Positions 162 through 15,338 of a stretch of 20,000 bases of DNA are shown here, piece after piece. How positions within the stretch are numbered: position 1 is the first letter of the stretch; every line of letters begins with the position of its first letter. The translations under genes were made by a program, and so were the position numbers. The DNA comes from Nitrospiraceae bacterium (GTDB lineage: Bacteria; Nitrospirota; Nitrospiria; Nitrospirales; Nitrospiraceae): contig JBBIQV010000013.1 in assembly GCA_037442105.1 (NCBI GenBank), positions 49,105-69,104 on the forward strand, given 5' to 3'. Below the pieces are notes generated by a model. It made no database searches and was not told where the DNA came from. It was given only the letters and a program-made list of their open reading frames with translations.

Positions 162-243
162 TCGTCAACCGTCAATCGTCATCCGGGATTTGGGAGTAAT
201 GCGTCTGTCCCCCGATTGGCGGATGATCAATAACGAATGACGA
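162..243. repeat. Heptamer-array inverted repeat, TCGTCAW/ATGACGA flavour
   Basis: Left arm tcgtcaa-ccgtcaa-tcgtcat (162-182); right arm ttggcgg-atgatca-ataacga-atgacga (216-243). The arms are imperfect reverse complements. Confidence 0.7.
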
Positions 244-246
244 TAT

Positions 247-456
247 TCACTGCGGTTTTGTCGGACAGGTGTTGATCCCGATCAACTGCCACGCCGGACA
301 GTAGCCGATTGTTCCCGTCACAAGCGCGACAGCCCCAACCACGAACGCAATCCCCATCCCCCATGCAGGCAAGCTCCCAAACGCCCCGATCGCCAACAGC
401 GCGAGGCCGATGATGATCCGGATTGGCCGTTCTACTCCTCCCACGTTACAGGTCAT
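247..456 (-). CDS. DUF2892 / YgaP-like small membrane protein
   Basis: NVGGVERPIRIIIG start, two hydrophobic helices and a GYCPAWQLIGINTC end match the DUF2892 pattern; strong RBS AAGGAGGGG. Confidence 0.88.
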   Translation of the reverse strand: MTCNVGGVERPIRIIIGLALLAIGAFGSLPAWGMGIAFVVGAVALVTGTIGYCPAWQLIGINTCPTKPQ

Positions 457-694
457 GGCACCCCTCCTTGTTATCTGTTATCCATCTCCCGCACTTCTTG
501 ACGGTAAGCGAGAAGCGGTCGCTTCCCTTAATTCTGTTCCGTATGAGTCACCGACTCCAAAATGGATTCGCCCTCCGAAAGGAAAAATCGTCGCCTCCCG
601 TTCGGTCGGAAAACAGTACAGGACATGGCAAGTCGTGCATCGGGTCGTAATGAATGATAGAGAGCCGATGCGACCGCATATCAAACAAAGAACT

Positions 695-710
695 TGCGAC
701 TGGCATGCCA
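695..710 (-). promoter_or_regulatory. Putative sigma-54 (-24/-12) promoter for the DUF2892-sqr unit
   Basis: Minus strand TGGCATGCCAGTCGCA is GG-N10-GC, two mismatches from TGGCACG-N4-TTGCW, and points toward DUF2892/sqr. Confidence 0.4.
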
Positions 711-899
711 CTGCCGGTCGCGTCTGAATCACAAAACCACATGCACTGACGAGGGGTTAGAGAAGTAGGGAGAGCGCCTGCGCGAGTTCGGTGGAGACAA
801 ATGCGCCAGCAACATCACAACCCCCTGGCGCAAGATGCTACAGATGGCGCAGCGCTGTTCACGCTGGAGGGTCGGCCAAGTGTCCGTCCTCGCTGGGAC

Positions 900-2135
900 T
901 TATTCGTAGCGTAGCGCCTCGATGGGATTCAAGCTAGCCGCCTTATTCGCAGGGTACAGGCCGAAGAACAGTCCGACAACGAGGGAGAAGAAAAACGCGG
1001 TTGCAACTGCGTCGAATGATATGATCGTCGGCCACCCCGCAACCACGGTGGTGAGCCTCGCTCCCAGAATCCCGAATAGGATTCCCACCATCCCGCCGGC
1101 GAGGCTCAGGGTCATCGCCTCGATGAGGAACTGCATGAGAATGTGCCGGCGCTTGGCGCCGACCGCCATCCGGACCCCGATTTCGCGCGTCCGCTCCGTG
1201 ACCGAGACCAGCAGGATATTCATGATCCCGATCCCGCCGACCAACAGCGAGACCGATGCGATCGCAAAGAGCATGACCGTCAGGGTTTGGCTCGTCCCCT
1301 CCTGGACCTTGCCGATGTCGACTTGGGTCCGGATGGTGAAATCGTCCGGCTGGTCCGGTTGCAGGCGATGCCGCAGTCGCAACACCTCACGTGTCTGTTC
1401 CACTGCGTCGGCCAGATCCTCAGACCGCTCGGTCATCGCGAAGAGGGCGCCGACCGAGCCGAGGAATTGTGTCCCCAGCACTTTCCGTTCTGCCGTCGTA
1501 AAGGGGATAAAGATAATGTCGTCCTGGTCCGAACCTTGGGCCGACTGCCCCTTCGGGGCGAGGACCCCGATGACGCGGAAGGGGACGTTCTTGATGCGGA
1601 TTATTGCGCCGACCGGCTCTTCTCCTGGATCGAATAAATTCTCCATCACCGTCTGTCCGACCAGCGCGACTCTGGCTGCCACCTCCATATCCGCTTGCGT
1701 AATCGGCCCGCCACTGACAAAGGACCAATCCCGGATCGTGAGGTAGCTCGGCGAAATGCCGTTCACCGGACCGTTCCAATTGCGATTCCCGTTGACGATC
1801 TGCATCACGTCCCGCTTGGCCCAGCCGGTTTCCTTGAGCAGCGGCACGCGCTTCTTGAGATCGAGCGCATCGGCGGACGTCAGCGTCACCACGCCACCCT
1901 GTCCGCCGCGCACGCCGCCCACCGTCGTCGCACCGGGCAAAATGATGATGACGTTCGTCCCCATGCTCGCGACCTGCGCACGAACCGCCGCCCTGGCGCC
2001 TTGCCCGATGCTGACCATGGCGATCACCGCGCCAACCCCAATGACAATCCCCAACATAGTGAGGCCCGCGCGCAAGCGGTTCCGGCCCAGGATACGAAGC
2101 GCCGTCATGACGGTCAGATAGACAAAGCCCGACAT
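900..2135 (-). CDS. MacB/FtsX-family ABC transporter permease
   Basis: RNRLRAGLTMLGIVIGVGAVIAM and GGIGIMNILLVSVTERTREIGVRMAVGA motifs, C-terminal YPANKAASLNPIEALRYE; start overlaps the upstream ATPase stop. Confidence 0.95.
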   Translation of the reverse strand: MSGFVYLTVMTALRILGRNRLRAGLTMLGIVIGVGAVIAMVSIGQGARAAVRAQVASMGTNVIIILPGATTVGGVRGGQGGVVTLTSADALDLKKRVPLLKETGWAKRDVMQIVNGNRNWNGPVNGISPSYLTIRDWSFVSGGPITQADMEVAARVALVGQTVMENLFDPGEEPVGAIIRIKNVPFRVIGVLAPKGQSAQGSDQDDIIFIPFTTAERKVLGTQFLGSVGALFAMTERSEDLADAVEQTREVLRLRHRLQPDQPDDFTIRTQVDIGKVQEGTSQTLTVMLFAIASVSLLVGGIGIMNILLVSVTERTREIGVRMAVGAKRRHILMQFLIEAMTLSLAGGMVGILFGILGARLTTVVAGWPTIISFDAVATAFFFSLVVGLFFGLYPANKAASLNPIEALRYE

Positions 2136-2854
2136 CAGTGAGGACTCCTTGCAGCGGACACCACCGGCGTGGTGCGTCGATCGCTCACGATTACTCCATC
2201 CCTGATGACAATCTCGCGCGAGGCACAGGCGGCAACCTCCGCCTCGTGCGTCACCAAGATGATCGTGATGCCGTCTTCACGGTTCAGCCGATCCAAGATG
2301 CTCATGATCTCGCGGCTGGATTCCGTGTCGAGATTCCCCGTCGGTTCGTCGGCAAGAAGAAGAGACGGCGAGGTAACCAGCGCCCGTGCGATCGCAACAC
2401 GCTGCTGCTGCCCCCCCGACAATTGGGTTGGATAATGATGCTCGCGCCCGCCGAGGCCCACTCGCTGTAACGCCGCCTGCGCCTGCGCACGCTGATCGCG
2501 AAGGGACATGCCGCGATAAAAGAGCGGGAGCTGCGCATTCTCTAATGCGCTGGTCCGAGGGATCAAGTTGAAACTTTGGAACACGAACCCGATCTGCTGA
2601 TTCCTGATCTCGGCCAAGAGATCGGAGCTCGCAGTTCCCACTTCGACTCCGTCCAACACATATCGGCCTTGGCTCGGCTGATCCAAACAGCCCAGGATAT
2701 TCATTAACGTCGACTTGCCGGACCCCGACGCCCCCATCACCGCCACAAACTCGCCGTGATCGATGGTGAGATTCACCCCGCGAAGCGCCTGGACCTGCAC
2801 GTCCCCAACCCGGTAAACTTTCCAGACATTCTCGCAGACGATCAGCGCACCCAT
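2135..2854 (-). CDS. ABC transporter ATP-binding protein (MacB/LolD-type)
   Basis: Walker A GASGSGKS, Q-loop GFVFQSFNL, signature LSGGQQQR, Walker B LLLADEPTGNLD, H-loop VTH. Confidence 0.95.
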   Translation of the reverse strand: MGALIVCENVWKVYRVGDVQVQALRGVNLTIDHGEFVAVMGASGSGKSTLMNILGCLDQPSQGRYVLDGVEVGTASSDLLAEIRNQQIGFVFQSFNLIPRTSALENAQLPLFYRGMSLRDQRAQAQAALQRVGLGGREHHYPTQLSGGQQQRVAIARALVTSPSLLLADEPTGNLDTESSREIMSILDRLNREDGITIILVTHEAEVAACASREIVIRDGVIVSDRRTTPVVSAARSPH

Positions 2855-14256: not shown

Positions 14257-14259
14257 GTA

Positions 14260-14338
14260 GCTTTCAGCAGTCAGCAATCAGCCGTCAGAATCAAAAGAAG
14301 AAGAATCGCGTTGAGCTGATCGCTGAGAGCTGATGGCT
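14260..14338. repeat. Heptamer-array inverted repeat, TCAGC/GCTGA flavour (3' of thi4)
   Basis: gc-tttcagc-agtcagc-aatcagc-cgtcaga, an A-rich loop, then gctgatc-gctgaga-gctgatg-gct. Confidence 0.88.
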
Positions 14339-14353
14339 TCTCTGCTAATCACC

Positions 14354-14869
14354 ATGGACGTTCAAGACTTCCTGATCCAAGGCGAGGGCAGCGAGGAAGA
14401 CAAGCGCGAGGCCTGGCTTTTGTTCCAGCAAGCTTACGAAAGCCAAATGAAGGGCGAGCTGGAAGAAGCCATCAACCTGTACAAGAAGTCCCTGGCCATG
14501 CATCCGACGGCAGAAGCCCACACGTTCCTGGGCTGGACCTACAGCTTCATGGGCAAGTTGGACGAGGCAATCGACGAATGCCACCGCGCCATCGAACGCG
14601 ATCCGGACTTCGGTAATCCCTATAACGACATTGGCGCCTATCTGATCGAGAAAGGGGAGTTCGATGAGGCCATTCCCTGGTTCAAAAAAGCCATGCAGGC
14701 GCCGCGGTATGAAAGTCCCGCATTCCCCCATTTGAACATAGGCCGCGTTTACGAACGCAAGGGTCAGTGGACGGAAGCGATCGAGTCTTATAAGCAGGCA
14801 CTCACGCTCAATCCCGACTATGTCCTGGCCAAACGCGCGCTGAGCCGGCTCATCAGCTCACTCAACTAA
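14354..14869 (+). CDS. Tetratricopeptide repeat protein (about 4 TPRs)
   Basis: Repeats such as AEAHTFLGWTYSFMGKLDEAIDECHRAIERDP and PHLNIGRVYERKGQWTEAIESYKQALTLNP; likely start ATG 14354. Confidence 0.88.
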   Translation: MDVQDFLIQGEGSEEDKREAWLLFQQAYESQMKGELEEAINLYKKSLAMHPTAEAHTFLGWTYSFMGKLDEAIDECHRAIERDPDFGNPYNDIGAYLIEKGEFDEAIPWFKKAMQAPRYESPAFPHLNIGRVYERKGQWTEAIESYKQALTLNPDYVLAKRALSRLISSLN

Positions 14870-14890
14870 CCGGCGAATTCCTGATGTACG

Positions 14891-15295
14891 ATGTCAACGA
14901 CGGCCGACAAGAAAACCGTCCTCGTGGTGGTGACCGACATCTTCTTCTACACCAAGGTCCGCGATGCCCTCTTGCCACAAGGCTATCACCTTGAGCGGGC
15001 GCGAGTGCAGCAAGACGTGCCGCAGAAGGCCGCCTCGCTGCACCCGGTCGCCATGATCCTCAACTTGAGCGATCCCGCCGTGGACGGCATGAAGGCGCTT
15101 GAGGCGGTCAAGGCTGACCGGTCGTTGCAATCCATTCCCGTGCTGGCCTTTGCCAACCACGAGGAAGTGGACACCTGGAAACGCGCCAAGGAGCTGGGCG
15201 TGACGAAGATCGTGTCACGGAACGAGTTTTCCGCCTACATGAGGAAACTGGTTGAGGAACTGCTTGGCGAACAGCCAGCAGCGAGCAGCGAGTAG
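14891..15295 (+). CDS. Single-domain response-regulator receiver-like protein (atypical)
   Basis: CheY-like pattern KTVLVV..., ILNLSDPAVDGMKALEAVK...IPVLAF...AKELGVTKIVS. Confidence 0.8.
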   Translation: MSTTADKKTVLVVVTDIFFYTKVRDALLPQGYHLERARVQQDVPQKAASLHPVAMILNLSDPAVDGMKALEAVKADRSLQSIPVLAFANHEEVDTWKRAKELGVTKIVSRNEFSAYMRKLVEELLGEQPAASSE

Positions 15296-15338
15296 CCAAA
15301 ACTCCGGGCTATCAGCTATTCGCTGTTTGCTATTCGCT
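15266..15338. repeat. Heptamer-array inverted repeat, AGCGARY/GCTATTC flavour, overlapping the receiver gene stop
   Basis: ggcgaac-agccagc-agcgagc-agcgagt-agcc ... gctatca-gctattc-gctgttt-gctattc-gct. Confidence 0.88.

Follow-up and report, generated by a model that had tools for sequence, protein, structure and literature searches.

Period-7 hairpins at gene junctions of a Nitrospiraceae genome and their probable kinship to PF05635 four-helix-bundle cassettes

Introduction

The closest described counterparts of the elements considered here are the intervening sequences (IVS) of bacterial 23S rRNA genes. Our subject is a set of six hairpins built from tandem 7-nt repeats, which lie in a 20,000-nt stretch of a Nitrospiraceae genome (hereafter the window; contig C13 of assembly G000, positions 49105-69104; the assembly has 2.8 Mb and is 87% complete) and which are very probably gene-less members of a family of repeat arms that flank PF05635 genes. 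The 23S IVS of Coxiella burnetii has been described to combine a PF05635 gene, a terminal stem, heptamer repeats and cutting by RNase III (PMC4990558). In those IVS from C. burnetii or Leptospira that bear an open reading frame (ORF), the PF05635 gene occupies the loop of a stem formed by terminal inverted repeats, tandem heptamers in strain-variable number precede the start codon, and a sporadic spread with horizontal transfer has been reported (PMC4990558). The likeness applies to the gene-carrying form of the present family only, as the six window elements contain no gene. Unlike the IVS, the window elements and the cassettes found between thiC and thi4 in relatives are located between protein-coding genes and not in an rRNA gene. 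Further differences are the existence of many repeat words that each go with one protein lineage, the large excess of gene-less hairpins over genes, and the purifying selection acting on the PF05635 protein.

Dispersed heptamer repeats are also known from other bacteria. The short tandemly repeated repetitive (STRR) sequences of cyanobacteria are intergenic heptamer repeats, and their likeness to the window elements is one of description. The GGGAATC repeats of Xanthomonas form intergenic arrays of degenerate heptamers, mostly of four units, with 70–75 close inverted pairs per genome (PMC4692102). They differ in consisting of one word and in being interpreted as G-quadruplex motifs, and the relevant part of that account draws no link to a gene family (PMC4692102). 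The species that carries them is also the source of 2GSC, a protein structure discussed below. The TAACTGA repeats of Beggiatoaceae share the heptamer period, the intergenic position, the proximity to start codons and a proposed role as protein-binding sites, but they are described as direct repeats, with one inverted case (PMC4679880). The main text of that paper contains neither 'four helix' nor 'intervening sequence'.

PF05635 has been noted as a homolog of Avd, a protein of diversity-generating retroelements which assists in the replacement of a homologous DNA patch (PMC10053308). The homologous four-helix-bundle fold was seen here as a weak match to the Pfam model bAvd (E 0.003). Unlike in Avd systems, no reverse transcriptase, template or variable repeat was found beside the G000 cassettes examined, no separate search for template repeats being made. 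The single partial reverse transcriptase match in G000 lies on contig C14, and the PF05635 genes are on C1 and C2. No link between the PF05635 family and dispersed heptamer hairpins was found in a literature search that covered few subscription journals and no supplements.

A genome-wide family of period-7 hairpins

A sequence-only reading of the window had described six elements of one architecture, in which tandem degenerate 7-nt units are followed by a loop and the reverse-complement array. All six were found in place, each folds into a stem, and period 7 was returned by Tandem Repeats Finder at every one of them. RNA fold z-scores on the transcribed strand were −2.7, −2.0, −2.6, −6.7, −3.7 and −5.5 for elements 1 to 6 (Table 1); the stem between the two arrays of element 2 corresponds to its centroid structure and not to its minimum-energy fold. 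Four of the six pass the detector used for the whole genome as drawn, element 2 passes only after shifting its 3' arm, and element 3 stays under the score cut-off.

Period-7 arms were present in 207 of the 761 strong hairpins of the genome. Close inverted array pairs (at most 100 nt apart) numbered 145 at period 7, 18 at period 6 and 7 at period 12, with 0–1 at each of the periods 4, 5, 8, 9, 10 and 11. The scan for enrichment over shuffled intergenic DNA, suggested together with the six elements, gave a clear answer: 181 intergenic period-7 hairpins were counted versus 0 in each of 10 dinucleotide shuffles, and a chance origin is excluded. The elements belong to the same descriptive class as STRR, namely over-represented intergenic tandem degenerate 7-mers.

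According to our own gene calls, 164 of the 207 hairpins lie between co-oriented genes, 14 between convergent and 11 between divergent genes, 13 within genes and 5 at contig edges. Typically, a hairpin starts at most about 15 nt after a stop codon and ends 5–25 nt ahead of the next start, and 182 of the 207 have 3–5 units per arm. The window elements had been placed between co-oriented genes or in a leader, which mostly applies, except that no long leader contains element 1; element 6 is not wholly intergenic either, its 5' arm lying within the final codons of a response-regulator gene and its 3' arm preceding a gcvT-like gene. Instead of the three flavours recognised in the window, at least eight occur in G000. 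As rough classes, these are TCAGC (64), TAGC (60), TGATG (16), CGTCA (15), AAAAT (15), TGAGT (12), GAGGC (10) and TGAGG (7), with 8 remaining. The view that the six form one family, in which the layout is kept while the word changes, was borne out genome-wide, and over five words the arms of 148 pairs point inward in 146 cases versus outward in 2.

The hairpins are neither a terminator nor an Rfam family, and an ordinary miniature inverted-repeat transposable element (MITE) is improbable. Only 7 of the 164 elements between co-oriented genes have at least five T in the next 10 bases, and none of the six window elements was listed as a terminator-like stem, in agreement with the missing U-tract from which terminators had been judged unlikely; the pattern of an intrinsic terminator, a short GC stem followed by a U-run, is not that of the hairpins. 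Loop sequences are mostly unique: 10 of 132 belong to a loop family, mostly within a separate carrier MITE. This carrier has terminal inverted repeats of 13 bp or more, dozens of copies in G000 and varied interiors, some of which include TAGC heptamer hairpins (e.g. C14:14073-14222, C20:35564-35720 and C8:15451).

The gene-carrying form

Array pairs lying 330–470 nt apart enclose a small ORF of family PF05635 (23S-IVS/Avd-like). All five PF05635 genes of G000 are flanked by arrays, four of them between one arm pair and one between two whole TAGC hairpins. They are accompanied by five different words, which together account for 162 of the 207 hairpins, and gene-less hairpins outnumber the genes about 40 to 1 (approximately 200 to 5). 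A search of the 87%-complete G000 for GxxExxY (PF13366), as another potential cargo, found none. No credible gene-excised form was detected in the contigs of three DNA runs, where the sole joint skipping a PF05635 gene had 21 letters on one side and low depth.

A search of 40 relatives gave 91 PF05635 matches, the five of G000 included, and the flanks of 86 of them were tested along with those of 150 control genes. A flanking inverted repeat with a score of at least 12 was found at 76 of the 86 loci versus 4 of the controls. The period-7 test was also passed by 57 loci versus 3 controls, and periods of 6, 8 or 9 occur at others; in relatives, the period kept in the window is not the only one. 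The PF05635 protein is under purifying selection, with dN/dS of 0.05–0.11 in the 8 unsaturated pairs among 22 close ones; the remaining 14 are synonymously saturated, yet their words are related. The nearest solved structure, 2GSC (E 4e-16), has five chains and has been reported to form a ring-shaped homopentamer (PMC4990558). Five contigs of the viral database IMG/VR (L112-L116) also carry genes akin to the TCAGC-type gene, and the repeat arms beside these are related too.

The junction of thiC and thi4, which holds element 4, was compared across 111 loci. They represent 106 distinct alleles, which automatic and rough classification divided into 8 alleles with the gene, 21 with repeat hairpins (of several words), 28 of MITE-like kind, 31 empty ones and 18 other or decayed ones. 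The gene-carrying alleles come from six genera and have the PF05635 gene between repeat arms, i.e. the small ORF in the loop which had been proposed as a thing to look for at orthologous junctions. Their proteins are near one another in one subfamily and form no single resolved clade. The thi4-TPR and regulator-gcvT junctions have a similar mix of alleles with no gene-carrying one. Allele L186 of thiC-thi4 retains the 5' arm of a cassette together with its first codons, which are joined to its far end; it is the one clear deletion product found, its 3' arm is gone and it forms no hairpin. The hairpins correspond to cassette arms minus the gene. The earlier proposal that they are remnants of small gene cassettes stands as far as kinship is concerned; the mostly unique loops and the lost 3' arm of L186 do not fit with simple remnants.

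At these junctions, 28 of 106 thiC-thi4 and 31 of 104 thi4-TPR alleles contain structured inserts of 130–250 nt from an unrelated family (e.g. L008, L010, L012, L013 and L018), whose ends we take to resemble terminal repeats of the IS1182 type. In L010 and L012, a heptamer-type hairpin is located inside the variable stem of the thiamine pyrophosphate (TPP) riboswitch 5' of thiC.

The repeat word follows the protein

A quick protein tree was built from 71 of the 86 rows (coverage of at least 88 positions, inverted-repeat score of at least 12), and its supported groups have a common word and period. The period is the same in all 108 protein pairs with more than 55% identity, and median word similarity climbs from 0.07 to 0.80 with protein identity. 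Among GTDB genomes, the 80 genes closest to the TCAGC-type gene (56–75% identical) span at least 13 phyla, one archaeal record included. Among the 79 whose flanks were tested, from about 60 distinct gene neighbourhoods, 65 have periodic inverted arms, and 44 carry at least two units of the TCAGC type, correctly oriented, on both sides, versus 1 of 76 in the family-wide set, that one being the query itself. Because the word tracks the protein family across many phyla, the protein likely recognises the word.

Counts in whole genomes were also obtained. Pattern matches to the TGAG-type word have a median of 19 in 8 genomes with the cognate gene (own arms included) and of 0 in 17 other genomes of the bacterial family, by hand count. 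Outside this family, 13 genomes without the TCAGC-type gene have 0–1 triple-TCAGC matches each; the gene carriers G035 and G039 have 5 and 35, and G029, whose gene copy contains a stop, has 0. Kinship and linkage confound all these counts of word against protein. Judged from sequence comparison, it is fairly probable that the PF05635 protein recognises its own repeat word, and the earlier suggestion of a substrate for a protein now appears likely, chiefly on account of the TCAGC-type arms.

Cores, spacers and pairing of the arms

Each unit has a conserved core of 3–5 nt, and the cores pair in 83–97% of the TCAGC units. The spacers behave differently from partner-shuffled controls: in opposite TCAGC arms, 60 of 194 are paired (31% versus 42%, with 0 of 2000 shuffles as low), and in TAGC arms 202 of 390 (52% versus 56%, p=0.007, orientation kept). 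For three rarer words, spacer pairing did not differ significantly from shuffled controls. As the spacers pair below these controls, the arms are not copies of each other and there is no spacer compensation, so that the compensatory variation between arms that had been anticipated is missing. An in-register spacer pairing of 41–46% was discarded as an artefact of best-alignment choice; it dropped below controls when arrays were found by their cores only. The TCAGC spacers are purine-rich on the transcript (315:207; 29 versus 6 elements).

The cores also change less. G000 has 43 junctions in common with G046, a genome of another genus, and in the six with the highest similarity, changed sites amounted to 23 of 271 in cores versus 24 of 110 in spacers (p=0.0009), 24 of 142 in loops and 107 of 539 in flanks, with core and spacer positions assigned from G000, which causes a slight bias. 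Neighbouring units have the same spacer in 5 of 68 cases, no more than the 9% expected by chance, and differences in arm length between strains are mostly of whole units (7 or 14 nt). Neither pairing alone nor slippage alone explains periodic cores with free spacers, whereas a multimer reading one unit per subunit would explain both.

Movement between genomes

The 132-bp tract that contains all of element 6 (Table 1) is identical in G046, where its flanks are about 72% identical. The region is matched in only 2 of 370 genomes of the bacterial family, and the allele of the window is spanned by a contig in runs X2 and X3. Among 109 loci, the longest exact runs shared across genera are 132, 85 and 60 bp, all on an element or cassette; all other such runs are at most 59 bp long and lie in conserved coding motifs. 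The thiC-thi4 allele of the window (genus g1) was also met in genera g18 and g9, with three genomes between them. The tree of the flanking thiC-thi4 DNA largely tracks genus, and the allele patterns cut across the flanking gene tree. A cassette is 94% identical across genera whose thi4 genes are 77–85% identical. Synonymous identity beside the shared allele is not raised in the two carriers ranked (ranks 26 and 49 of 95). An allele homologous to element 1 is present in G077 and G024, both of genus g24. For element 2, matches in the 370 genomes cover only the part on the nadA side, and contigs from three public runs have one extra 7-nt unit after position 9895. At G000:C2:7181-7321 (L094), the strain of X2 and X3 has about 140 other letters resembling a TAGC element between near-identical flanks, a difference that may represent an allele swap within the species.

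In a comparison that covered 1.2 of the 3.9 Mb of G046, 706 kb aligned with 70% identity. Short-patch exchange is likely real and not confined to elements. One near-identical patch of 183 bp lies within a gene and leaves out the neighbouring element. The patches at G000:C2:73421-73603 and C42:17249-17529, one in a gene and one non-coding, are 97–99% identical to G046 with flanks of 62–73%. Two genes at C43:7580-8890 and 17490-18884 are approximately 90% identical versus the average of 70%, which suggests whole-gene transfer.

Proposed explanation and alternatives

On balance, we favour the explanation that the hairpins are gene-less kin of PF05635 cassettes whose words are likely bound by the cognate protein and which likely replace each other at junctions by short-patch recombination between lineages. 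Each protein lineage would keep a private repeat word and likely bind it. TRAP is a precedent for a ring protein that reads one repeat unit per subunit; in a similar way, the ring-shaped pentamer may read the 3–5 units of an arm, one per subunit, either on the transcript once it has folded or on single-stranded DNA. Short-patch recombination between lineages would exchange hairpins, the gene-carrying form and other kinds of insert at the same junction. A cognate protein would maintain the arrays, which would persist for a time or degenerate once it is lost. An insert that folds into one stem would be cheap to accommodate between a stop codon and the ribosome site that follows, in the manner of an IVS in rRNA. 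The least certain part is whether the protein drives the spread or the alleles merely hitch-hike. A stronger version, in which an Avd-like pentamer reads a private word of 6–9 nt and promotes homing of word-bearing patches into matching junctions, is held only tentatively. Such an element would spread by itself, encode no nuclease, transposase or reverse transcriptase, and target the junctions of distant genera.

Several observations weigh against the favoured explanation. Word and protein travel on one cassette, and co-inheritance alone yields some correlation between them. TCAGC arrays occur in 22 of 24 relatives of the bacterial family, the TCAGC-type gene being seen in G000 only; for three flavours of G000, which comprise 37 hairpins, the 87%-complete assembly lacks a cognate gene; and an 8-mer word has 166 matches in G004 versus 0 in G005, both with the cognate gene. 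With regard to movement, only 2 of 13 near-identical patches between G000 and G046 overlap elements (about 0.15 expected by a rough count, one of the two having prompted the test), and some lie in plain coding DNA. Identity of the element reached at least 0.72 at 8 of the 43 shared junctions, leaving 35 with no common allele, and the 132-bp tract of G046 could be an assembly chimera. As for a role of the transcript, G-U pairs, formerly thought to mark the variable positions, are no more frequent than A-C on the transcribed strand of 164 elements (223 versus 234, p=0.64), and purine-rich spacers are absent in the four other words tested. The strand evidence for a role at transcript level is mixed.

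It is also conceivable, if unlikely, that the hairpins are host stems for processing or stabilisation of mRNA, at which RNase III or a similar enzyme tunes operon expression, with the PF05635 gene as a passenger excised from the message in the way of a 23S rRNA IVS. Cutting of the heptamer-bearing terminal inverted repeats of the Coxiella IVS by RNase III (PMC4990558), an RNase III gene in G000, the 164 of 189 intergenic elements between co-oriented genes (11 between divergent ones) and the hairpins lodged in the riboswitch stem of L010 and L012 argue for such stems. They leave periodic cores with free spacers, and a word that tracks the protein across phyla, unexplained, the same junction is often empty or occupied by an unrelated MITE, and the pairs show no G-U bias. 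Regular internal loops make no obvious RNase III substrate. A role in mRNA processing can nevertheless coexist with the explanation we favour.

Neutral debris, i.e. cassettes that insert and lose their gene, arms that drift by slippage, spacer mismatches that survive since perfect palindromes are deleted, and alleles spread by background recombination, fits with the deletion product L186, the arm changes by whole units, spacer pairing below chance, the many decayed alleles and the short patches that move without elements. However, L186 has no 3' arm and no hairpin, cores change at less than half the rate of spacers, neighbouring units share spacers only at chance level, unlike in slippage arrays, and some 200 hairpins face 5 genes; we regard this explanation as improbable. 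Less probable still is an ordinary MITE or repetitive extragenic palindromic (REP) family mobilised in trans by a transposase, for which the carrier MITE with TAGC hairpins in several copies and three weak matches to an HUH transposase (Y1_Tnp) could be cited. In contrast to such families, no more than 10 of 132 loops can be grouped by sequence, no common termini or target duplication are evident in the elements listed, among which there is no close empty/filled pair for comparison, at least eight unrelated words occur, and alleles are common to the same junction and not to scattered sites.

Features of the window

The coordinates are collected in Table 1.

Table 1. Coordinates of the hairpins and associated features in the window
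Feature	Position	Strand	Context	Evidence
Element 1, CGTCA flavour hairpin	162..243	-		Tandem Repeats Finder, folding, detector
Element 2, TAGC flavour hairpin	9846..9905	-	nadA / ileS junction	
TPP riboswitch aptamer	11200..11303	+	5' of thiC	Rfam RF00059, 70.6 bits
Element 3, short worn TAGC flavour hairpin	11361..11406	+		
Element 4, TCAGC flavour hairpin	13369..13445	+	thiC-thi4 junction	
Element 5, TCAGC flavour hairpin	14260..14338	+	thi4 / TPR gene junction	
Element 6, TAGC flavour hairpin	15266..15338	+		
132-bp tract identical in G046 (other genus)	15224..15355	+	holds element 6	

The genes beside the elements are YgaP-like, sulfide:quinone-reductase-like, nadA, ileS, thiC, thi4, TPR, response-regulator and gcvT-like genes. 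Element 1 begins 3 nt past the stop of the YgaP-like gene (247-456, minus strand) and ends ahead of the ribosome site of the sulfide:quinone-reductase-like gene, a label taken from reading the translation and supported in Pfam by a weak Pyr_redox_2 match. Element 3 directly follows the U-run of the terminator-like hairpin of the TPP riboswitch and lies ahead of the thiC ribosome site. In Rfam, TPP was the only family above its gathering score in the window; a match of a miRNA model on element 4 was far under the cut-off.

Three other features were noticed. At 2877-2967, between ABC exporter genes, a loop of 51 nt separates the arms of a perfect 20-bp inverted repeat, which has no heptamer period. 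A long stem with T-runs on both strands (4362-4398) is likely a two-way terminator. No gene was called in the approximately 440 nt between the YgaP-like gene and an ABC permease (457-899).

Implications

The proposed kinship joins two things that have long been unexplained, the excess of heptamer repeats in bacteria and the PF05635 proteins of unknown function. If the stronger, homing version is true, the heptamer repeats dispersed in bacteria would be traces of a code that links protein to word and is legible from genomes. The finding that the word follows the protein supplies matched pairs of protein and target, such as the TCAGC-type gene and the TCAGC arrays, and should every lineage recognise a word of its own, PF05635 would provide a naturally occurring collection of sequence-specific binders of nucleic acid. 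From the 132-bp tract shared across genera, it is likely that very short patches are exchanged even where genomes have an identity of only about 70%, a point of relevance to the evolution of operon junctions.

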